Below, piece by piece: positions 1,268 to 43,718 of a stretch of 64,000 nucleotides of DNA. Positions within the stretch are counted from its first letter, which is position 1. Every line of letters begins with the position of its first letter. The translations under genes and the position numbers were made by a program. The notes under the pieces are model-generated. The model worked only from the letters and a program-made list of their open reading frames with translations, made no database searches and had not been told where the DNA came from. Origin of the DNA: Escherichia coli (GTDB lineage: Bacteria > Pseudomonadota > Gammaproteobacteria > Enterobacterales > Enterobacteriaceae). The stretch lies in assembly GCF_003991155.1 (NCBI RefSeq), contig NZ_CP031293.1; one strand, 5' to 3'.

Positions 1268-2491
1268 TTATCCCCGAATATCATTTATAAATTGACGTAA
1301 CACGTTCTCTTTATCGAGCGTGCGTTCGGCATATTCACGTGCCACCGTGTTGTGTTTGGGCAGCAGGAGCGCCTGACGAATCCCCGCCACCAGCGCCTCG
1401 ACCGATTCCGGTTCCACGCAAACCGCAATGCCCGGAAAGGTTTCGCAAAGCTGTCCCAGTTCTGTGTGGGCTTCAGCAGTAATCACCGCGTTACCGCCTA
1501 CCGCCAGAATATTGGTCAGTTTCGACGGCAATACGGCATCTGCCGCGCCGCGTTTTTGCACCACCAGATGGCAATCCCCCATCTTCAGCAGTGCGGGTAA
1601 AGCGTCATATGATTGCAGCGGAAAAAATTGCATGTTGCGCAGTCCACGCTGCTGCGCCATTTTTTCCAGCCGCGCTTTGCCGCCGCCCTGCCCGACAATG
1701 GCAAAAATAAGCGGTTCATCGCGCAGGCGATCGGCAGCTTCAATAACGTTTTCCAGCCCCTGCTTTTCACCAATATTGCCGGAGTAAAGAACGATTTTTT
1801 TGTTATCCGGCAGGGCAAGCTGGTTACGAAGGTCGTCAACATCGGCGTCTGCAACATGTTGAAAACGGGCGATTTCCGACCAGTTGGGGAAGAAGATGAC
1901 GTTTTCCGCCGCCACGCCTTTTTCGATAGCTTTATTCATCATCGAGCGCGAAATCGTGGAGACGTTATCGACGTTATGCAGTCCGCTACGTTCGAACGCC
2001 GTCGCCAGCTGTGCCACTTTGCCGCCTTTACTTTTTCCGGCAAGGCCCAGCCCCAGCATGGCGTCCACTTCGTAATCCTGAATATGCAGCACCGTGCGCG
2101 CACCAGACAGTTTCGCCAGCAGGCGCATTCCCGGCGTGCAAAACAGCGTTGGCACCACGCCGATAATGCGATCCGGCTTCCAGCGACGTTGCGCCATCAG
2201 CGGAAAGAAACTGCTGGCGGCAAAACTGCCGAGATGCAACAGGCGTTTCAGGGTGCTCGGCTGTTTTGGCACGTACAGCGGGCAGCGCCACACCGTGGCG
2301 GCCCCCTCTTCTCGTTTGTACCGCCAGGCGGAATAGTTCTCGCCCACCTGCCATTGCGGGTAGTAAGGCGGTGCGGTAATAACCCGCACCTCATGACCTT
2401 GTGCCGCCAGCCATTCCACCATCTCGCCGGTGTACTTGCCGATGCCGGTTAACTCCGGCGAGTAGTTAATGCCGTAGACCAGTATTTTCAT
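1268..2491 (-). CDS. wcaI: colanic acid biosynthesis glycosyltransferase
   Basis: 407-aa [23 protein letters not shown]... GT-B glycosyltransferase; position between cpsB and gmm as in K-12 wca cluster. Confidence 0.9.
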
Positions 2492-2967
2492 AATCCGGGT
2501 ACTCCGGCACGCTTCTCAGCGAGAAAATAGGCGCGGCTGTTAGCGTGAACATTGTCACTGGCGAGCAACGCGTCCGGCGTCAGCCAGCGGTAATCGTCAT
2601 GCTGCTCATCCGGCAGTAACAGATCTTCTTCAGCGACTCTGAAGCGAAAACCGAGCACCACATAGTGAGTGGTGAAATCCGTGTCGGAGAAGTTATCGTC
2701 ATAAAAGTGCTGCCAGACACCGTAAAACTGGCCTACTGTTATCGGCAGACGCAGCCCCAGTTCCTCCATCGTCAGCCGCTCAAATGCGGCTTCCAGCGTT
2801 TCGTCTTTCTGCACGCGCCCTCCCGGCACAAACCAGTAACCCTGCGCCGGGCGGTTGGTTCTTTTGCCAAGCAGAAACTCGCCGCGACTGTTCTCGACAA
2901 TAAAGTCGAGAGAGACAAGCGGAGTAGAGCGCACTACCGTGGCAAAGTCTTCCTGACGTAAAAACAT
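2488..2967 (-). CDS. gmm: GDP-mannose mannosyl hydrolase (Nudix)
   Basis: [15 protein letters not shown]... with Nudix box ([23 protein letters not shown]); start trimmed to second Met; 4-nt overlap with wcaI. Confidence 0.9.
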
Positions 2968-2969
2968 CA

Positions 2970-3935
2970 TTACCCCCGAAAGCGGTCTTGATTCTCAAGG
3001 AACCACTGGTAAGTGCTGGCGAGCCCCGCTTCCAGTGAGATTTCGTGATACCAGCCAAGCTGATGCAGGCGTGTCACATCCAGCAGTTTGCGCGGTGTAC
3101 CATCCGGTTTACTGGCATCAAAAACCACCCGACCTTTGTAACCCACCACTTTGGCGATGGTTTGCGCCAGCTCGCGGATAGTGCAGTCAACGCCCGTGCC
3201 GACGTTAATGTGCGACAGCATCGGTTGGGTGTTCTCCAGCCAGACTTCGTGCGCCAGCTCCATCACATGAATGCTCGCCGCCGCCATATCATCGACGTGC
3301 AGAAATTCGCGCATCGGTGTACCGCTGCCCCACACCACCACGTCCGGTGCATTCTGTGCCGTCGCCTCGTGGAAGCGACGCAGCAATGCAGGGATCACAT
3401 GCGAATTACTCGGGTGGAAGTTGTCATGCGGGCCATACAGGTTGGTCGGCATGACCGAGCGATAATCGCGTCCATACTGGCGGTTGTAAGATTCGCACAG
3501 TTTGATCCCGGCGATTTTGGCAATAGCATAAGGCTCGTTAGTCGGCTCCAGCGTACCCTGCAATAACTCGCTTTCTGCCATCGGCTGTTTTGCCAGTTTC
3601 GGGTAGATACAGGACGATCCGAGAAACAGCAGTTTGTTCACGTCGTTCTGATGCGCGGCGTGAATGATGTTGCTCTCAATCATCATGTTCTGGTAGATGA
3701 AATCTGCCGGATAGGTGTTGTTGGCAACAATGCCGCCCACTTTCGCCGCCGCCAGATAGACCTGGTCAATACGTTCGCTGGCAAAGAAATCATGCACCGC
3801 GCGGCTGTCCAGCAGGTTCAGCTCGTCGCGGGTGCGTAATACCAGTTCCACATCACCGCGCTGTTCGAGCTGCCGCCTGATGGCGGAACCGACCATCCCG
3901 CGATGGCCAGCGATAAAAATGCGTTGTTTACTCAT
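2970..3935 (-). CDS. fcl: GDP-L-fucose synthase
   Basis: 321-aa ORF, N-terminal Rossmann GxxGxxG ([11 protein letters not shown]), SDR-type epimerase/reductase; follows gmd. Confidence 0.92.
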
Positions 3936-14647: not shown

Positions 14648-16231
14648 ATGGAATGGATTGCCGATCCGTCTATCTGGGCTGGATTAATCACGCTGATTGT
14701 GATCGAACTGGTCCTCGGCATTGATAACCTGGTCTTTATTGCCATCCTCGCCGAAAAACTACCGCCGAAGCAGCGCGACCGCGCACGGGTTACCGGGCTG
14801 CTGCTGGCGATGTTAATGCGCCTGTTACTGCTGGCGTCAATCTCCTGGCTGGTCACCCTGACTCAACCGCTGTTCAGCTTCCGCTCGTTTACCTTTAGCG
14901 CCCGCGACTTAATCATGCTGTTTGGTGGTTTCTTCCTGCTGTTCAAAGCCACGATGGAGCTGAACGAACGGCTGGAAGGGAAAGACAGCAATAACCCCAC
15001 GCAACGCAAAGGTGCGAAGTTCTGGGGGGTGGTGACACAAATTGTGGTACTGGACGCCATCTTCTCACTCGACTCGGTGATTACCGCCGTCGGGATGGTC
15101 GACCATTTACTGGTCATGATGGCCGCCGTCGTTATCGCTATCAGCCTGATGTTGATGGCCAGCAAGCCGTTAACGCAATTTGTTAACAGTCACCCGACGA
15201 TCGTTATTCTCTGCTTAAGCTTCCTGTTGATGATTGGCTTTAGCCTGGTGGCAGAAGGTTTCGGCTTCGTCATTCCGAAAGGCTACCTGTACGCTGCTAT
15301 TGGTTTCTCGGTGATGATCGAGGCGCTCAATCAGTTGGCTATCTTTAACCGGCGACGTTTTCTTTCCGCTAACCAGACGCTGCGCCAGCGAACTACCGAA
15401 GCGGTAATGCGCCTGTTAAGCGGGCAAAAAGAAGATGCGGAACTGGATGCCGAAACCGCGTCTATGCTGGTGGATCATGATAATCAGCAAATCTTTAATC
15501 CGCAGGAACGGCGGATGATTGAGCGGGTACTTAATCTTAACCAGCGTACCGTCAGCAGCATTATGACGTCGCGCCACGATATTGAGCATATCGATCTCAA
15601 CGCACCGGAAGAAGAAATCCGCCAGTTGCTGGAGCGAAATCAGCACACGCGACTGGTGGTTACTGATGGCGATGACGCGGAAGATTTGCTCGGTGTTGTT
15701 CACGTTATCGACCTGTTACAACAGTCACTGCGCGGCGAACCGCTCAACCTGCGGGTGTTGATTCGCCAGCCGCTGGTGTTCCCGGAAACCTTGCCGTTGT
15801 TACCTGCCCTGGAGCAGTTCCGTAATGCCCGCACACACTTTGCTTTTGTAGTGGATGAGTTTGGCTCGGTGGAAGGGATTGTGACATTAAGTGACGTCAC
15901 AGAAACCATTGCCGGTAACTTACCGAATGAAGTGGAAGAGATCGACGCCCGCCATGATATTCAGAAGAATGCCGACGGTTCCTGGACGGCGAATGGTCAT
16001 ATGCCGCTGGAAGATCTGGTGCAATATGTGCCGCTGCCGCTGGATGAAAAACGTGAATATCACACCATTGCCGGGCTATTGATGGAATATTTGCAGCGTA
16101 TTCCAAAACCTGGCGAAGAAGTTCAGGTGGGGGATTATTTGCTTAAAACGTTGCAGGTGGAAAGCCATCGCGTGCAGAAGGTGCAAATTATTCCGCTACG
16201 TAAGGATGGCGAGATGGAGTACGAAGTGTGA
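14648..16231 (+). CDS. yegH: TerC-family inner membrane protein with CBS and CorC/HlyC domains
   Basis: ORF-track entry trimmed to [13 protein letters not shown]... (527 aa); TerC-like TM region, CBS pair, C-terminal transporter-associated domain. Confidence 0.88.
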
Positions 16232-16236
16232 TAAAA

Positions 16237-16276
16237 CATCAAATGCGCAGGTTCAAACTGCGCATTTGATTTATAC
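16237..16276 (+). terminator. Rho-independent terminator after yegH
   Basis: Perfect inverted repeat catcaaatgcgcag / ctgcgcatttgat with 7-nt loop followed by T-rich run. Confidence 0.6.
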
Positions 16277-16305
16277 AAAATTTAGTATAATCTAAGGATG
16301 GAGTA

Positions 16306-16644
16306 ATGAGAAAAAAGCTGGCTTTTCTTGATACCAGTCTTGACGATTTACGCGCATTTCCAGAATCGTCTCGACAGGAAATTGGCTATCAACTCGACAG
16401 GATCCAACAAGGGTTAAACCCATACGACTGGAAACCTTTTTCAACTATCGGCCCTGGTGTGCGAGAGATTCGTACTCGCGATGCTGATGGGATCTATCGC
16501 GTCATGTATATCGCAAAATTTGAAGAAGCGGTTTACGTATTGCATTGTTTTCAAAAGAAAACACAGACTACCAGTCAATCGGATGTTGATTTAGCCAAAC
16601 GACGCTATAAAGAACTTGTTCAGGAGCGGAAAAATGAAAATTGA
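16306..16644 (+). CDS. HigB-like toxin (Gp49-like, RelE/ParE superfamily)
   Basis: 112-aa ORF; C-terminal pattern YVLHCFQKKTQTTSQSDVDLAKRRYKEL typical of Gp49-like toxins; toxin-first order, 11-nt overlap with downstream HTH gene. Confidence 0.65.
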   Translation: MRKKLAFLDTSLDDLRAFPESSRQEIGYQLDRIQQGLNPYDWKPFSTIGPGVREIRTRDADGIYRVMYIAKFEEAVYVLHCFQKKTQTTSQSDVDLAKRRYKELVQERKNEN

Positions 16645-16924
16645 AACCTTTGATAGTGTGTGGGATGCGGTGAGTGACACCCCTGAACAAGCGGAAAATA
16701 TGCGGATCCGTGCCGAACTTGTAACGATCATTAATAACTGGATTGAACAACAAGGGTTTAGCCAGGCTCAGGCAGCGTCTGCTTTAGGGGTCACTCAACC
16801 TCGCATATCTGAACTTGCCAGAGGTAAGATCCAGATCTTTAGTATCGATAAATTGATCACCATGATGGCTCATGCAGGATTGCATATTCAACGTATTGAA
16901 ATTCAATATCCACATGCTGCTTAG
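16634..16924 (+). CDS. HigA-like antitoxin (XRE-family HTH)
   Basis: Start at ATG 16634 preceded by aggagcgg SD; HTH segment QAQAASALGVTQPRISELARGK. Confidence 0.65.
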   Translation: MKIETFDSVWDAVSDTPEQAENMRIRAELVTIINNWIEQQGFSQAQAASALGVTQPRISELARGKIQIFSIDKLITMMAHAGLHIQRIEIQYPHAA

Positions 16925-16935
16925 TGCTATAAACA

Positions 16936-16965
16936 CAGATGGCGACAAATTGACGCCGCCATCTG
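16936..16965. terminator. bidirectional hairpin between convergent higA-like gene and asmA
   Basis: Inverted repeat cagatggcg ... cgccatctg read directly. Confidence 0.45.
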
Positions 16966-16976
16966 CATAACTTGTC

Positions 16977-18830
16977 TTACATCTTCTCCAGCAACTTCTT
17001 CACATCTTTGCCATTGCGGGAATCTTTATTCCGCTCGGCCCAGTCATTCAGGCGACGTTTCGCTTCATCCTGTAGATGTTTGCGCAGTAACTGATCCACT
17101 TGCAGGCTGTAATTGAGTTGCTGCCAGTTGCCATAAACCCGCAGCGGTACTGGCGTTTCTTTGAGGAAATCAATCAGTTTGCTTTCTCCGTTCCAGCCAC
17201 CAATCACACGAATGTCAAACTGGGTGTCGCAGGTTTGATCTGCCAGATTCAACATGCCTTCCCCTGTCAGCGCCAGCACTGGCGATTGACCTTGCATGTC
17301 GTTTAACGTCACGACGCCATCCTTCAACGTCAAATCGGTGGTAAAGCGGTCAAGACGCGTTACGTTATCGAAGTTTTCAGCGGCCTTCACATCACCACCA
17401 TTACGTTCTACCGCTTGCTGAATCATCTGCTGGAAGTTCATCCCTTCCATGCGCGTGTCGGTCATTTCGACATGTGCCTGTCCTTGCCAGTTATGGCGGA
17501 ATGCGTCGGCATCTATGTCAGCACCGGAGAAATCACCAGCCAGTGACATCTTTCCGGTCAACGAAATCGGATAGTTAAACGCCTTCAGAATGGTACCAAT
17601 CTCAACGTTTTCCAGCCGTGGCTGGAAGTTTATCCGCGGATTTATTGATGTCGCGTCCAGCGTGCCCGGCAGCGAAACCTGTCCACCGTTAAGCTTGCCC
17701 TGCAGTTGAGTAATTTCCAGCAAACCCGACTTGTTGGTCATTTGCGTGGCAACGTCTGTAAAATTCATTCCGCGCCAGCGCACGTTACTGGCCTGCAACA
17801 AAATATCAGCCGTAAAGCCATGCAATCCCTGATAGGCCGGTTCATCAATACGCGAAGAAATGACCGGGCGCGGCAACGTGGATTGGCTCTGCCCTTGCTG
17901 CGCGGCACCGTTTTCACCGTTCGCTGTTTCTTTAAGCGGGATGAGGTTGTCAAGATTCAGTTGCGGGAATTGCAGTCTCAACTGCCATTCCGGTTTCTCT
18001 GTCAACGTGACCTGTGCTTGCCCGCTCAGCGTACTGTCATTGGCGGTCAAACTAATTTGGTTAAATGAAAGGCGTTTATGTGACTCCTGCCACTGGGCCT
18101 GGAAACTCCCCTGCCCCTGAATACCTTGTTTTGGTAAATCGGCACCCTGCAACTGCCAGTTAATTTGTTCAATAGCCGCCGTTAAATCATGCGGATAATC
18201 AGAAGCATCTACCGTACCGTTAAGGGATATCGTGAGGTCGCGCTGATCGCGATTAACCCGCCCGGAGAACTCAAATGAGCCACGATGTTGGGGATCTTGT
18301 TCCATTTGCAGGCGGATATTGCGGATTGTCACCTGCTCGTCATCTTCATGCTGGAACACCAGCACGCTGTCCGCCATCTTAAGACTGGATATATCAAACG
18401 ACCATCCGCGATCGTCTGACAGATCCGGCAAGGTATTGTCGCGCGGTGCAACCGGAGCGTCTTCACTGCGCACCGCTTCCGTCTGCGGCGTCAGTTGGAT
18501 CACAGCCCCTTTTAGCATCACCTGCTTAACGCTCAGTTGATGACTCAGTAGTGGTAAAAGCGCCACGTCCAGACGCATGTTGTCGGCGCGAACCAGTGGC
18601 TGGCTCGCGCCCTGGGCGGTGAGAGACATTCGCCCGGAGAGGATACTAAGCTGCGGCCAGACGTGCCAACGCAGTGGCCCGTCGAGCTGCAATTGATAAC
18701 CGCTACGTGCAGCAACTTGCTTGACCATATAGTCGCGGAAATCATTCGGATTCACCAGCAACACTAACGCAGATAACCCGGCCACCAGCACGACCAGGAG
18801 TATCATCAGCGTCGTCAGAAATCGTCTCAT
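16977..18830 (-). CDS. asmA: outer-membrane assembly protein AsmA
   Basis: 617-aa ORF with N-terminal TM anchor (MRRFLTTLMILLVVLVAGLSALVLL). Confidence 0.9.
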   Translation of the reverse strand: MRRFLTTLMILLVVLVAGLSALVLLVNPNDFRDYMVKQVAARSGYQLQLDGPLRWHVWPQLSILSGRMSLTAQGASQPLVRADNMRLDVALLPLLSHQLSVKQVMLKGAVIQLTPQTEAVRSEDAPVAPRDNTLPDLSDDRGWSFDISSLKMADSVLVFQHEDDEQVTIRNIRLQMEQDPQHRGSFEFSGRVNRDQRDLTISLNGTVDASDYPHDLTAAIEQINWQLQGADLPKQGIQGQGSFQAQWQESHKRLSFNQISLTANDSTLSGQAQVTLTEKPEWQLRLQFPQLNLDNLIPLKETANGENGAAQQGQSQSTLPRPVISSRIDEPAYQGLHGFTADILLQASNVRWRGMNFTDVATQMTNKSGLLEITQLQGKLNGGQVSLPGTLDATSINPRINFQPRLENVEIGTILKAFNYPISLTGKMSLAGDFSGADIDADAFRHNWQGQAHVEMTDTRMEGMNFQQMIQQAVERNGGDVKAAENFDNVTRLDRFTTDLTLKDGVVTLNDMQGQSPVLALTGEGMLNLADQTCDTQFDIRVIGGWNGESKLIDFLKETPVPLRVYGNWQQLNYSLQVDQLLRKHLQDEAKRRLNDWAERNKDSRNGKDVKKLLEKM

Positions 18831-29695: not shown

Positions 29696-29724
29696 TTGAC
29701 ACTAAGGGCGGAGTGACATAATTT
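29696..29724 (+). promoter_or_regulatory. sigma70-like promoter of first Sib RNA
   Basis: ttgaca (29696-29701), 17-nt spacer, taattt (29719-29724); equivalent ttgaca-N17-tacttt recurs in each later repeat (e.g. 30031-30059). Confidence 0.5.
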
Positions 29725-29730
29725 CAGGAG

Positions 29731-29877
29731 TGAGGGTTAGGGAGAGGTTTCCCCCTCCCCCTGGTGTTCTTAGTAAGCCTGGAAGCTAATCACTAAGAGT
29801 ATCACCAGTATGATGACGTGCTTCATCATAACCCTTTCCTTATTAAAAGTCCTCTTCTCCGGGAGAGGGTTTCCCGT
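29731..29877 (+). ncRNA. sib: Sib antisense RNA, copy 1 (approximate ends)
   Basis: Antisense to ibs copy 1, between the promoter and a GC hairpin plus T-rich tract (~29855-29880); ends inferred from recalled K-12 sibA geometry. Confidence 0.55.
29770..29829 (-). CDS. ibs: Ibs type I toxin peptide, copy 1 (MMKHVIILVILLVISFQAY)
   Basis: 19-codon minus-strand ORF read by hand; hydrophobic peptide matching the Ibs family; too short for the ORF track. Confidence 0.75.
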   Translation of the reverse strand: MMKHVIILVILLVISFQAY

Positions 29878-30065
29878 TTCAGCGTCCCGCTGAAATCGTC
29901 GGCTTACCTCCTTTCGCCCTGAATGCAGTCTATCGCTAACGCGTGAACAAAATAGTTTCCTCTGTGATTATTGCGTAACGTCTCGCAAAGAATATTTGCT
30001 GGCAGGATCGCAGACTACAAAGCCTGCGGATTGACAATCTGATTGTGAAGGCATACTTTCAGGAG

Positions 30066-30205
30066 TGAGGGTAGAGCGGGGTTTCCCCCGCCCTGGTAGT
30101 CTTAGTAAGCGGGGAAGCTTATGACTAAGAGCACCACGATGATGAGTATCTTCATCATGACCCTTTCCTTATTTAAGGCCCCTTCCTCGGGAGGGGCTTT
30201 CCCGT
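30066..30205 (+). ncRNA. sib: Sib antisense RNA, copy 2 (approximate ends)
   Basis: Promoter ttgaca 30031-30036 / tacttt 30054-30059; terminator hairpin ~30177-30207. Confidence 0.55.
30102..30158 (-). CDS. ibs: Ibs type I toxin peptide, copy 2 (MMKILIIVVLLVISFPAY)
   Basis: 18-codon minus-strand ORF read by hand. Confidence 0.75.
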   Translation of the reverse strand: MMKILIIVVLLVISFPAY

Positions 30206-30393
30206 TTCAGCGTCCCGCTGAAATCGTCGGCCTACCTCCTTTTGCCCTGAATACAGTCTATCGCTAACGCGTGAACAAAATAGTTTCCTCTGTGATTATT
30301 GCGTAACGTCTCGCAAAGAATATTTGCTGGCAGGATCGCAGACTACAAAGCCTGCGGATTGACAATCTGATTGTGAAGGCATACTTTCAGGAG

Positions 30394-30533
30394 TGAGGGT
30401 AGAGCGGGGTTTCCCCCGCCCTGGTAGTCTTAGTAAGCGGGGAAGCTTATGACTAAGAGCACCACGATGATGAGTATCTTCATCATGACCCTTTCCTTAT
30501 TTAAGGCCCCTTCCTCGGGAGGGGCTTTCCCGT
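30394..30533 (+). ncRNA. sib: Sib antisense RNA, copy 3 (approximate ends)
   Basis: Same repeat architecture, 328 bp downstream of copy 2. Confidence 0.55.
30430..30486 (-). CDS. ibs: Ibs type I toxin peptide, copy 3 (MMKILIIVVLLVISFPAY)
   Basis: 18-codon ORF identical to copy 2. Confidence 0.75.
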   Translation of the reverse strand: MMKILIIVVLLVISFPAY

Positions 30534-30721
30534 TTCAGCGTCCCGCTGAAATCGTCGGCCTACCTCCTTTTGCCCTGAATACAGTCTATCGCTAACGCGT
30601 GAACAAAATAGTTTCCCCTGTGATTATTGCGTAACGACTCGCAAAGAATATTTGCTGGCAGGATCGCAGACTACAAAGCCTGCGGATTGACAATCTGATT
30701 GTGAAGGCATACTTTCAGGAG

Positions 30722-30861
30722 TGAGGGTAGAGCGGGGTTTCCCCCGCCCTGGTAGTCTTAGTAAGCCGGGAAGCTTATGACTAAGAGCACCACGATGATG
30801 ATCCACTTCATCATGACCCTTTCCTTATTTAAGGCCCCTTCCTCGGGAGGGGCTTTCCCGT
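30722..30861 (+). ncRNA. sib: Sib antisense RNA, copy 4 (approximate ends)
   Basis: Same repeat architecture. Confidence 0.55.
30758..30814 (-). CDS. ibs: Ibs type I toxin peptide, copy 4 (MMKWIIIVVLLVISFPAY)
   Basis: 18-codon minus-strand ORF read by hand. Confidence 0.75.
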   Translation of the reverse strand: MMKWIIIVVLLVISFPAY

Positions 30862-31049
30862 TTCAGCGTCCCGCTGAAATCATCGGCTTACCTCCTTTCG
30901 CCCTGAATGCAGTCTATCGCTGACTTGCGGATAAAATAGTTTCACATGTGATTATTGCGTGACGTCTCGCAAAGAATATTTGCTGGCAGGATCGCAGACT
31001 GCAAAGCCTGCGGATTGACAATCGGACCGTGAAGGCATACTTTCAGGAG

Positions 31050-31189
31050 TGAGGGTAGAGCGGGGTTTCCCCCGCCCTGGTAGTCTTAGTATGCTGGGTA
31101 GCTAATCACTAAGAGCACCACGATGATGAGTAGCTTCATCATGACCCTTTCCTTATTTAAGGCCCCTTCCTCGGGAGGGGCTTTCCCGT
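31050..31189 (+). ncRNA. sib: Sib antisense RNA, copy 5 (approximate ends)
   Basis: Same repeat architecture. Confidence 0.55.
31086..31142 (-). CDS. ibs: Ibs type I toxin peptide, copy 5 (MMKLLIIVVLLVISYPAY)
   Basis: 18-codon minus-strand ORF read by hand. Confidence 0.75.
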   Translation of the reverse strand: MMKLLIIVVLLVISYPAY

Positions 31190-31420
31190 TTCAGCGTCCC
31201 GCTGAAATCATCGGCTTACCTCCTTTCGCCCTGAATGCAGTCTATCGCTAACGCGTAGATAAAATAGTTTCCTGTGTTATTACTGGATGCGTGCTCGCAA
31301 AAGTGCCTGCCATTCAGACGATTCCCGACAGTGTTTCATAATTCCTCCATTTTTCTCCCTTATTGGCTGGCTACACTAGTATCATTCCGCGAAACGTTTC
31401 AGGAAGAGAAACTCTTAACG

Positions 31421-42915: not shown

Positions 42916-43168
42916 TTACGATGCCGGGCGTGGGTTGTTGGCGTCCGGCTTTATATCAAAACAACTCTTAGTTATTGATAATTAAGATTAACCTCCGCCA
43001 TTAAAATAGTGGGCACTGACGAGCACTCGTTGTGCTTTCTTTGTTTACCATCCCATACTTATCTTCCTGAACATGTTCATATGCCAAAATATCTTCTAAT
43101 ACTTTCGTGACGCTATCCGGTTTATGAAATACACTGATGTAAGATTTTTACTTACAGGCGGGTGTAAA

Positions 43169-43420
43169 ATGGCCAGAACGATGACGGTTGATCTCGGCGA
43201 TGAGTTGCGTGAATTTATCGAGTCCTTAATTGAATCCGGCGACTATCGCACCCAAAGCGAAGTGATCCGTGAGTCGCTGCGCTTACTTCGAGAAAAGCAA
43301 GCAGAGTCTCGCCTGCAAGCGTTACGTGACATGCTCGCTGAAGGGTTGAGTAGTGGTGAAGCTCAGCCGTGGGAAAAGGACGCGTTTTTACGGAAGGTGA
43401 AAGCAGGGATAAGGAAATAA
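43169..43420 (+). CDS. ParD-like antitoxin (ribbon-helix-helix)
   Basis: MARTMTVDLGDELREFIESLIESGDYRTQSEVIRESLRLL... typical of ParD/COG3609-type antitoxins; the start is uncertain (alternative in-frame starts at 43124 and 43181). Confidence 0.65.
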   Translation: MARTMTVDLGDELREFIESLIESGDYRTQSEVIRESLRLLREKQAESRLQALRDMLAEGLSSGEAQPWEKDAFLRKVKAGIRK

Positions 43421-43421
43421 T

Positions 43422-43718
43422 GTGCGTACTATAAAACTCATGCCAAAAGCCAATGAGGATTTAGAAGGCATCTGGTATTACAGCTATCACCATTTCGGCG
43501 AACCACAAGCCGACAGATATGTGGAACATCTTTCAGACGTTCTCCAGATTCTGAGTAACAATAATATAGGTACGCCCAGACCTGAATTAGGCGAAGGTAT
43601 TTTTGTTCTTCCTTTTGAACGCCACGTAATTTATTTCCTGCAATCGCCAGAGGAAATTATCGTCATTCGTATCCTTAACCAAAACCAGGACGCCTCCAGA
43701 CATTTACACTGGAGCTAA
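43422..43718 (+). CDS. ParE-like toxin (RelE/ParE superfamily)
   Basis: GTG start 2 nt after antitoxin stop with aagga SD; N-terminal LMPKANEDLEGIWYY motif characteristic of ParE. Confidence 0.65.
   Translation: MRTIKLMPKANEDLEGIWYYSYHHFGEPQADRYVEHLSDVLQILSNNNIGTPRPELGEGIFVLPFERHVIYFLQSPEEIIVIRILNQNQDASRHLHWS

Follow-up and report, generated by a model that had tools for sequence, protein, structure and literature searches.

A toxin-first Gp49/HTH_37 gene pair, probably an active type II toxin-antitoxin module, is one allele of the yegH-asmA interval in Escherichia coli

The HigBA systems of E. coli K-12 (ygjN-ygjM) and P. vulgaris are toxin-first type II toxin-antitoxin (TA) modules, in which the toxin is a ribosome-dependent mRNase with a RelE fold and the antitoxin is an XRE-type helix-turn-helix (HTH) protein. 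HigB toxins of the K-12 and P. vulgaris type are placed in Pfam families other than Gp49, namely HigB_toxin/HigB-like (PF05015) (PMC11980606). The gp49 family itself has 22K members, is also known under the aliases HigB1, HigB3 and tad, and is described with ribosome-dependent mRNA degradation and the T/A gene order; 69 natural gp49-HTH fusions have been counted (PMC11980606). Pairs of a Gp49 (PF05973) and an HTH_37 (PF13744) protein are toxin-first and combine a toxin of the RelE/ParE superfamily with an antitoxin of the HigA superfamily, and seven such modules are found in Tn3-family transposons, including Tn4662a and TnPosp1 (PMC7157771). A survey of the TA systems of E. coli lineages lists 11 Gp49 hit clusters, together with HTH_37 partner groups.

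In M. tuberculosis, the Gp49-like toxin HigB1 (Rv1955, the toxin of the TAC system) is a ribosome-dependent A-site mRNase (PMC9098466). Its catalytic pocket is formed by K58, E66, R68, N73, R77, F93, K95, Q98 and K99, and its toxicity is abolished by alanine at K58, R68, R77, K95 or K99. A long C-terminal helix, which touches the P-site tRNA, is typical of Gp49-like toxins. HigB2 and HigB3 of the same species, treated as homologues of HigB1, were non-toxic in the same study (PMC9098466).

In this study, we analysed a window of 64,000 nucleotides of E. coli DNA and identified a two-gene pair of this kind between yegH (14648-16231, plus strand) and asmA (16977-18830, minus strand). The toxin gene (16306-16644, plus strand, 339 nt, ATG start) encodes a protein of 112 aa, and the antitoxin gene (16634-16924, plus strand, 291 nt, ATG start) encodes a protein of 96 aa. 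The two frames share 11 nt (16634-16644) in both the open reading frame listing and the raw sequence. A preliminary description had proposed a toxin-first pair with these protein lengths and this overlap between these two genes, and the proposal proved exact to the base. The toxin C-terminus reads ...LHCFQKKTQTTSQSDVDLAKRRYKELVQERKNEN. RefSeq carries both coding sequences with the same boundaries in strains identical over the yegH-asmA region. It names the toxin (WP_001227700.1) “type II toxin-antitoxin system RelE/ParE family toxin” in the PGAP annotation and the antitoxin (WP_000687871.1) “helix-turn-helix domain-containing protein”. A Shine-Dalgarno region, AAGGATGGAG, precedes the toxin gene (16294-16303, plus strand). 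For the antitoxin, we found the Shine-Dalgarno sequence AGGAG within the 3' end of the toxin gene (16622-16626, plus strand), 7 nt ahead of the ATG. Judged from the sequence, this position and the overlap are consistent with translational coupling of the antitoxin.

To assign the toxin to a family, we compared it with domain models and found that Pfam Gp49 (PF05973) matches it over the full length of the model (E=1.5e-29, 102 bits, model positions 1-90 of 90, residues 13-102). PHROG 2523 also matches the toxin (E=3.6e-36). At E<=0.001 the toxin has 6,719 homologues, many of them 60-75% identical and found in Enterobacterales, Betaproteobacteria and Alphaproteobacteria; identity to the toxins of M. 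abscessus prophages is 56%. The AlphaFold (AF2) model of the toxin, built from a 47-sequence alignment that also served for the analysis of family columns, reached a pLDDT of 92.3 and a pTM of 0.84. Its predicted topology runs b1-a1-a2-b2-b3-b4-b5 and ends in a long C-terminal helix, that is, the RelE-type fold and the helix of Gp49-like toxins. Every significant Foldseek match of this model in the PDB was a toxin of the RelE/ParE superfamily. The leading matches were S. pneumoniae HigB (6af4), M. tuberculosis HigB1 (7awk, TM 0.68; 7nbu, TM 0.67) and V. cholerae HigB2, and YafQ, RelE and ParE2 were also matched. The Gp49 match and the predicted fold thus support the earlier assignment of the 112-aa protein as Gp49/HigB-like.

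M. tuberculosis HigB1 is the best structural match to the toxin model (TM 0.68) and shares with it the Gp49-like family, the toxin-first operon and the long C-terminal helix. It differs in sequence, with 18-20% identity, and in belonging to a three-part system with a SecB-like chaperone, whose gene is absent here. A search of PDB sequences with the toxin alone gave a marginal match to S. pneumoniae HigB (E=0.019). A profile search gave this match at E=4.4e-05 and HigB1 at E=0.11, and provided a residue alignment. According to this alignment, seven of the nine HigB1 pocket residues are identical in the toxin: K58 corresponds to K43, E66 to E54, R68 to R56, R77 to R65, F93 to F82, K95 to K84 and Q98 to Q87. 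The pairing of K58 with K43 is our own reading, based on a common K-P motif and allowing for a 3-residue difference in the loop. The two remaining positions are changed, N73 of HigB1 being D61 here and K99 being T88.

These two changes bear on the main rival to an active TA module, namely that the pair is an attenuated or non-toxic relic. It would have kept the TA architecture with a toxin weak or inactive on E. coli ribosomes, and would owe its persistence to being a neutral passenger or a small, autoregulated HTH regulator. Two positions of importance in HigB1 are occupied by T88 and D61 here, and the non-toxic HigB2 and HigB3 of M. tuberculosis show that such relatives exist. However, position 88 is T or A throughout the enterobacterial clade of toxins in the family alignment, so that T88 is no private lesion of this copy. 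Furthermore, all 13 of the 13 invariant family columns are kept in the toxin (L15, P19, G49, G51, E54, R56, R65, Y68, H80, F82, K84, T89 and R100).

To estimate selection on the pair, both genes were compared with their Salmonella, Erwinia, Yersinia and Photorhabdus orthologues. Nonsynonymous divergence (pN) was 0.11-0.20 for the toxin and 0.18-0.25 for the antitoxin, and synonymous divergence (pS) was saturated in both genes (0.78-0.94) over the same four comparisons. A pN far below pS indicates that both genes are maintained as proteins by purifying selection, and this stands against a relic. Chance open reading frames were ruled out by the same difference, by the Pfam E-values and by the thousands of homologues.

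The antitoxin is matched by HTH_37 (PF13744, E=4.9e-22) and more weakly by HTH_3 (E=5.4e-07) and HTH_31, in line with its first description as an XRE-HTH protein. Among solved structures, its nearest relative is an HTH protein that is uncharacterised (PDB 2a6c, E=3.1e-14), and S. pneumoniae HigA was a weak match in the PDB sequence search (E=0.24). A conserved segment, FDxVWDA, lies at the antitoxin N-terminus ahead of the HTH. We also modelled the two proteins as a single chain, toxin-(GSGGS)5-antitoxin, by AF2 with a mixed alignment. In this linker-fusion prediction (pTM 0.82), residues 3-6 of the antitoxin adopt a beta strand, and the mean pLDDT is 96 over the 10-residue block with antitoxin residues 4-13. 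An ordered N-terminus in such a model fits a toxin-binding segment ahead of the HTH, and we regard this as suggestive only.

In V. cholerae HigA2, the toxin-binding segment reportedly lies at the N-terminus and the HTH at the C-terminus, and the fusion model suggests the same layout here. The V. cholerae HigB2-HigA2 system (5ja8, 8a0x) further resembles the pair in the RelE fold and the long C-terminal helix of its toxin (TM ~0.6). PDB sequence searches detected no sequence similarity between HigB2-HigA2 and the pair, and the identity in structural alignments is 10-18%.

The top Foldseek match, S. pneumoniae HigBA (6af3/6af4), is likewise a two-gene, toxin-first system with an HTH antitoxin, and is the only solved structure that the sequence of the toxin recovered. 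The match of its HigB to the toxin spans the C-terminal motif RvlY...LHxFxKKTQKT...A.R. It differs in an identity of ~18% and in a poorer superposition (TM ~0.5, rmsd 8-9 A), the latter because of the domain arrangement. Phage N15 gp49/gp48, the founder of PF05973, has the same gene order, with a Gp49 toxin and an HTH regulator, a 1-nt overlap, and GTATA/TATAC half-sites upstream. Its toxin is 29-32% identical to the toxin described here, its antitoxin belongs to another HTH subgroup with another N-terminal part, and the pair lies on a linear plasmid-prophage, whereas the E. coli pair lies at a chromosomal core-gene junction. The modules of Tn3-family transposons have the identical Pfam domain pair and the toxin-first order. 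They adjoin a res site and resolvase or transposase genes, whereas no transposase, resolvase or terminal repeat is present here.

Finally, the pair resembles the HigBA systems of K-12 and P. vulgaris in architecture and fold, not in family. The NCBIfam HigA equivalog TIGR02607 scored 16.3 bits on the antitoxin, against a cut-off of 47.7, and TIGR02683 (upstrm_HI1419 toxin) scored 24.8 bits on the toxin, against a cut-off of 62.85. These scores place the pair outside the HigA and HI1419 equivalogs, and canonical membership in either was ruled out. The label “HigB/HigA-like” of the preliminary description therefore holds for architecture and fold, but the pair is of the Gp49/HTH_37 class.

In the region upstream of the toxin gene, we found a 20-nt palindrome (16271-16290), whose two halves are TTATACAAAA and TTTAGTATAA, with the core TATAC-N8-GTATA. 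A perfect -10 hexamer, TATAAT (16286-16291, plus strand), lies within its right arm. The palindrome is 100% identical in the Salmonella orthologue, whose toxin is 79% identical, and the DNA homology between Salmonella and E. coli starts at the palindrome, the sequence farther upstream being unrelated. In Yersinia, Photorhabdus and Achromobacter, the orthologous genes are preceded by the pattern (T)ATAC-N8-GTAT(A), at 13-35 nt from the start codon. In the Erwinia pEP1 orthologue the half-sites are present in the opposite order. A palindrome of this form coincides with the -10 box in four genera besides E. coli. Given that its half-sites are kept ahead of orthologous genes all the way from Salmonella to Achromobacter, the palindrome overlapping the -10 box is probably the operator for the HTH antitoxin or for the toxin-antitoxin complex.

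The promoter itself is atypical. No acceptable -35 element was found at 16-18 nt from TATAAT in the E. coli copy, where TTGATT lies at 14 nt; in the Salmonella copy, we read GTGATA at a spacing of 17 nt. The promoter scan found no plus-strand sigma-70 promoter that passed its rule upstream of the toxin, and the perfect -10 box alone is evident. This suggests that expression could be weak or could need read-through from yegH. The poor -35 element is also a point in favour of a relic.

Two hairpins flank the pair, and both belong to the accessory segment and are missing from the K-12 allele. The first, 3' of yegH (16238-16270), has 16-nt arms and a 13-bp stem in the fold (dG -20.6 kcal/mol, z -7.4). 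It may terminate yegH transcripts. The terminator scan called it on the minus strand only; it has no clean U-tract on the plus strand, so yegH read-through may add to the expression of the pair. The second, between the convergent antitoxin and asmA genes (16936-16965), has a perfect stem of 9 bp, longer on the minus strand (dG -15.5 kcal/mol on the plus strand and -24.8 kcal/mol on the minus strand), and the terminator scan made no call for it on either strand. The pair had been described as flanked by the yegH terminator and a bidirectional hairpin. Both hairpins exist, and a terminator role is plausible for each, but the scan called the first on the minus strand only, and not the second.

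To place the pair in the diversity of E. coli, we compared the alleles of the yegH-asmA interval. The accessory segment extends from the yegH stop codon to the asmA stop codon (16232-16976), and divergence from K-12-type alleles begins and ends at these two codons. Its GC content is 42%, versus 52% in yegH and asmA. In a K-12 strain, yegH and asmA are neighbours separated by a CDS-free spacer of 273 bp, and sensitive blastn and tblastn searches found no module remnant in K-12-type spacers. This agrees with the preliminary description, in which the two genes adjoin in K-12 and the pair is accessory content. The spacers of other module-free genomes measure 67, 292 or 451 bp. These alternative spacers are made up of a REP element together with further repeats, which are found elsewhere in the genome (median 3 places per genome). 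On the alternative alleles, Rfam gave sub-threshold matches only (naRNA4/REP, 33 vs 59.5 bits; TwoAYGGAY, 31.5 vs 43 bits).

The same interval is thus filled with 67-451 bp of unrelated repeat DNA in genomes that lack the module. This ruled out a simple insertion with an empty site in K-12, and indicates allelic replacement. The pair had been described as inserted between yegH and asmA; it is present there, but alternative alleles take the place of the whole interval. An inspection of the allele junctions by eye showed no target-site duplication or direct repeat. Beside the pair, among the neighbours wza, yegH, asmA, dcd and udk, we found no transposase, resolvase, integrase or phage genes and no terminal repeats. 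The yegH-asmA locus is an allelic hot-spot, and the module is one of its alleles.

The complete module is present in 792 of 5,426 complete E. coli genomes (~14.6%, about 15%), as its description as accessory content implied. The 5' part, comprising the hairpin, the promoter and the N-terminal half of the toxin, was found in 792/5,426, and the 3' part, comprising the C-terminal half of the toxin and the antitoxin, in 909-910/5,426. Carriers include O157:H7 and NCTC86. They have the module at a median of one place per genome, nearly always on the chromosome, and in every inspected record it lies between yegH and asmA. Compared with O157:H7, identity is 100% in the 5' half of the module and 97.4% in the 3' half, and this difference points to recombination within the module.

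Derived alleles were found as well. In ~118 genomes (2.2% of 5,426), a hybrid allele joins K-12-type repeat DNA to toxin codon ~58, so that the toxin is truncated at its 5' end and the antitoxin is intact. CU39ES-1 and an assembly labelled E. fergusonii share this junction. The hybrid allele of ECONIH1 additionally carries an IS110-family element and is the sole derived allele with one. A nonsense allele leaves an 82-aa toxin in 326 contigs. Repeated decay of this kind in E. coli speaks for a relic, but a toxin lost while its antitoxin is kept is what one would expect if the toxin is harmful. Considering these points together with the invariant residues and the low pN, we regard the relic as unlikely.

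Toxin-first overlapping pairs with the same domain pair are found in phage N15 (gp49/gp48), in M. abscessus prophages, on the Erwinia plasmid pEP1, in a Salmonella conjugative-transfer region, and in Yersinia, Photorhabdus and Achromobacter. Across eight orthologous loci, the order is toxin-first and the overlaps measure 1-23 nt. The Salmonella pair is 79% (toxin) and 77% (antitoxin) identical and has the identical 20-nt operator candidate. The 74%-identical Erwinia pair adjoins psiA on pEP1. In Yersinia, Photorhabdus and Achromobacter, the cassette stands alone amid unrelated genes. Such scatter among unrelated genes, a conjugative region and a plasmid is usual for mobile TA cassettes. Among E. 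coli plasmids in PLSDB, Gp49 toxins are mostly <60% identical to the toxin of this study, and a near-identical toxin occurs on three “plasmid” records. The one inspected (NZ_CP083887.1) is a chromosomal fragment with asmA-dcd-udk and was rejected as a plasmid-borne copy; the other two are large records of 438 kb and 365 kb.

Based on these results, we consider it likely, with a probability of about three in four, that the pair is an intact, active and autoregulated type II TA module with a ribosome-dependent mRNase, of the Gp49/HTH_37 class and of the reverse-order HigBA-like branch. The uncertainty about its function arises because some Gp49-family toxins are non-toxic and because the promoter is atypical. 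Toxicity, RNase activity, neutralisation, autoregulation and physiological role are proposed by analogy with the family. A literature search with the yegH-asmA locus, the two WP accessions and O157 locus tags found no experimental study, which is a weak null result for the tags, as these were guessed.

In the proposed mechanism, the two genes would be co-transcribed with the toxin first, and their overlap of 11 nt would probably couple translation of the antitoxin to that of the toxin. Like M. tuberculosis HigB1, the toxin would enter the A site of the ribosome and cleave mRNA there, with a predicted basic pocket of K43, E54, R56, R65, F82, K84/K85 and Q87. The N-terminal segment of the antitoxin is predicted to bind and block the toxin, and its C-terminal HTH to bind TATAC-N8-GTATA over the -10 box and repress the operon. 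The low-GC module would have been acquired horizontally; conjugative plasmids and prophages carry close relatives. In E. coli it is fixed at one site, and its movement from lineage to lineage probably occurs by homologous recombination in the core genes on either side.

The main selected role of the pair could be anti-phage abortive infection, in which shut-off of host transcription by the phage, or antitoxin decay, would free the RNase. Defence against phage is a function of many type II TA modules. RelE/ParE toxins are treated as defence toxins (PMC11980606), relatives of the pair lie on prophages and in phage N15, and its patchy distribution is typical of defence genes. However, PADLOC gave weak, domain-level matches only (NsnC, E=0.0024; PDC-M64C, E=6.9e-05), by which a known defence system was rejected, and the neighbours are core housekeeping genes and form no defence island. 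We regard this main role as unlikely. It concerns the role and not the mechanism, and is compatible with an active TA module.

The yegH-asmA locus has three states (intact TA module, orphan antitoxin or neither). It is quite improbable, in our view, that the antitoxin, whose operator candidate is identical to that of a homologue from a conjugative plasmid, serves as an anti-addiction or cross-regulating factor against Gp49 toxins of plasmids and phages. If this were true, selection would act on the interaction with mobile elements, and not on the toxin's effect on its host. Least probable of all is that the chromosomal copy or the orphan antitoxin is an anti-addiction module that neutralises related plasmid toxins and allows plasmid loss without killing: the Salmonella and pEP1 relatives, the shared operator candidate and the ~118 genomes that keep the antitoxin after toxin loss speak for it, but the divergence of E. 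coli plasmid Gp49 toxins and the chromosomal origin of the inspected “plasmid” record speak against it.

The pair is annotated, belongs to a well-described class, has an ordinary architecture and is already known in kind. It adds another strain-variable type II TA module to those on record and is otherwise of little consequence. It is usable as a lineage marker, being absent from K-12 but present in O157:H7 and in about 15% of complete E. coli genomes. Furthermore, the natural series of intact, toxin-truncated and absent alleles at one fixed chromosomal site is suited to the study of TA decay. So far, M. tuberculosis, S. pneumoniae and V. cholerae have supplied most of the biochemistry of the Gp49/HTH_37 class, for which the pair would offer a convenient enterobacterial model.

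The yegH-asmA toxin-antitoxin module is mosaic within E. coli: O157:H7 genomes match its 5' part (16232-16477) at 100% identity and its 3' part (16478-16976) at just 97.4%, and in about 40 genomes the 5' part shows only 80-90% identity.

Other genomes carry a hybrid allele at the same yegH-asmA locus, in which the middle of the toxin gene is fused to K-12-type repeat DNA. Its carriers are about 118 complete E. coli genomes and one assembly labelled E. fergusonii; the allele spans 733-1623, 2453-3000 and 726-2502 of loci L005, L013 and L016, respectively. The junction is constant in every case, falling between ...GCCGCC and GCTCGCGATG. The promoter and the N-terminal half of the toxin are lost, and the antitoxin is kept intact. 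In strain ECONIH1, an IS110-family element is additionally present at the hybrid allele.

Alleles without the module were also inspected. A 451-bp yegH-asmA allele seen in other E. coli contains repeats at 834-977 and 1088-1160 of locus L003. The repeats of such alleles, one of which is approximately 200 bp long, are also found elsewhere in the genome, at a median of 3 places per genome. Two sub-threshold Rfam matches were obtained here, one to TwoAYGGAY RNA (31.5 bits vs a cut-off of 43) and the other to the REP-derived naRNA4 (33.1 bits vs 59.5).

A shortened form of the toxin is common in E. coli. This 82-aa allele (P0045), found on 326 contigs, has an early stop after ...VYVLHCF and also bears R56P. 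It lacks K84/K85 as well as the C-terminal helix, and the P0045 toxin is presumably inactive.

Outside E. coli, we identified two differing Gp49/HTH pairs less than 2 kb apart in a conjugative-transfer region of Salmonella (3001-3625 and 4635-5226 of contig L010), which also carries TraW/TraX-like and exclusion-protein genes. One pair is a close relative of the yegH-asmA module, and the other belongs to an N15-like subtype whose antitoxin has a different N-terminus.

Elsewhere in the window, two 98-aa ORFs upstream of yegQ (43124-43420 and 43422-43718, both on the plus strand) form another small type II pair, likewise accessory. In a strain identical across the compared 1,801-nt region, their counterparts sit between yegP and yegQ; the first is annotated as a ParD-family antitoxin and the second as a RelE/ParE-family toxin. 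K-12 is not known to have a pair of this kind at that position.

Furthermore, at 29717-31282 a 328-bp unit is repeated in tandem, with 4.8 copies in all (93% matches). This array corresponds to five Ibs type I toxin genes annotated between mdtA and yegL in the strain identical across the compared region. Because K-12 has two (ibsA and ibsB), the Ibs array of the window appears expanded relative to K-12.
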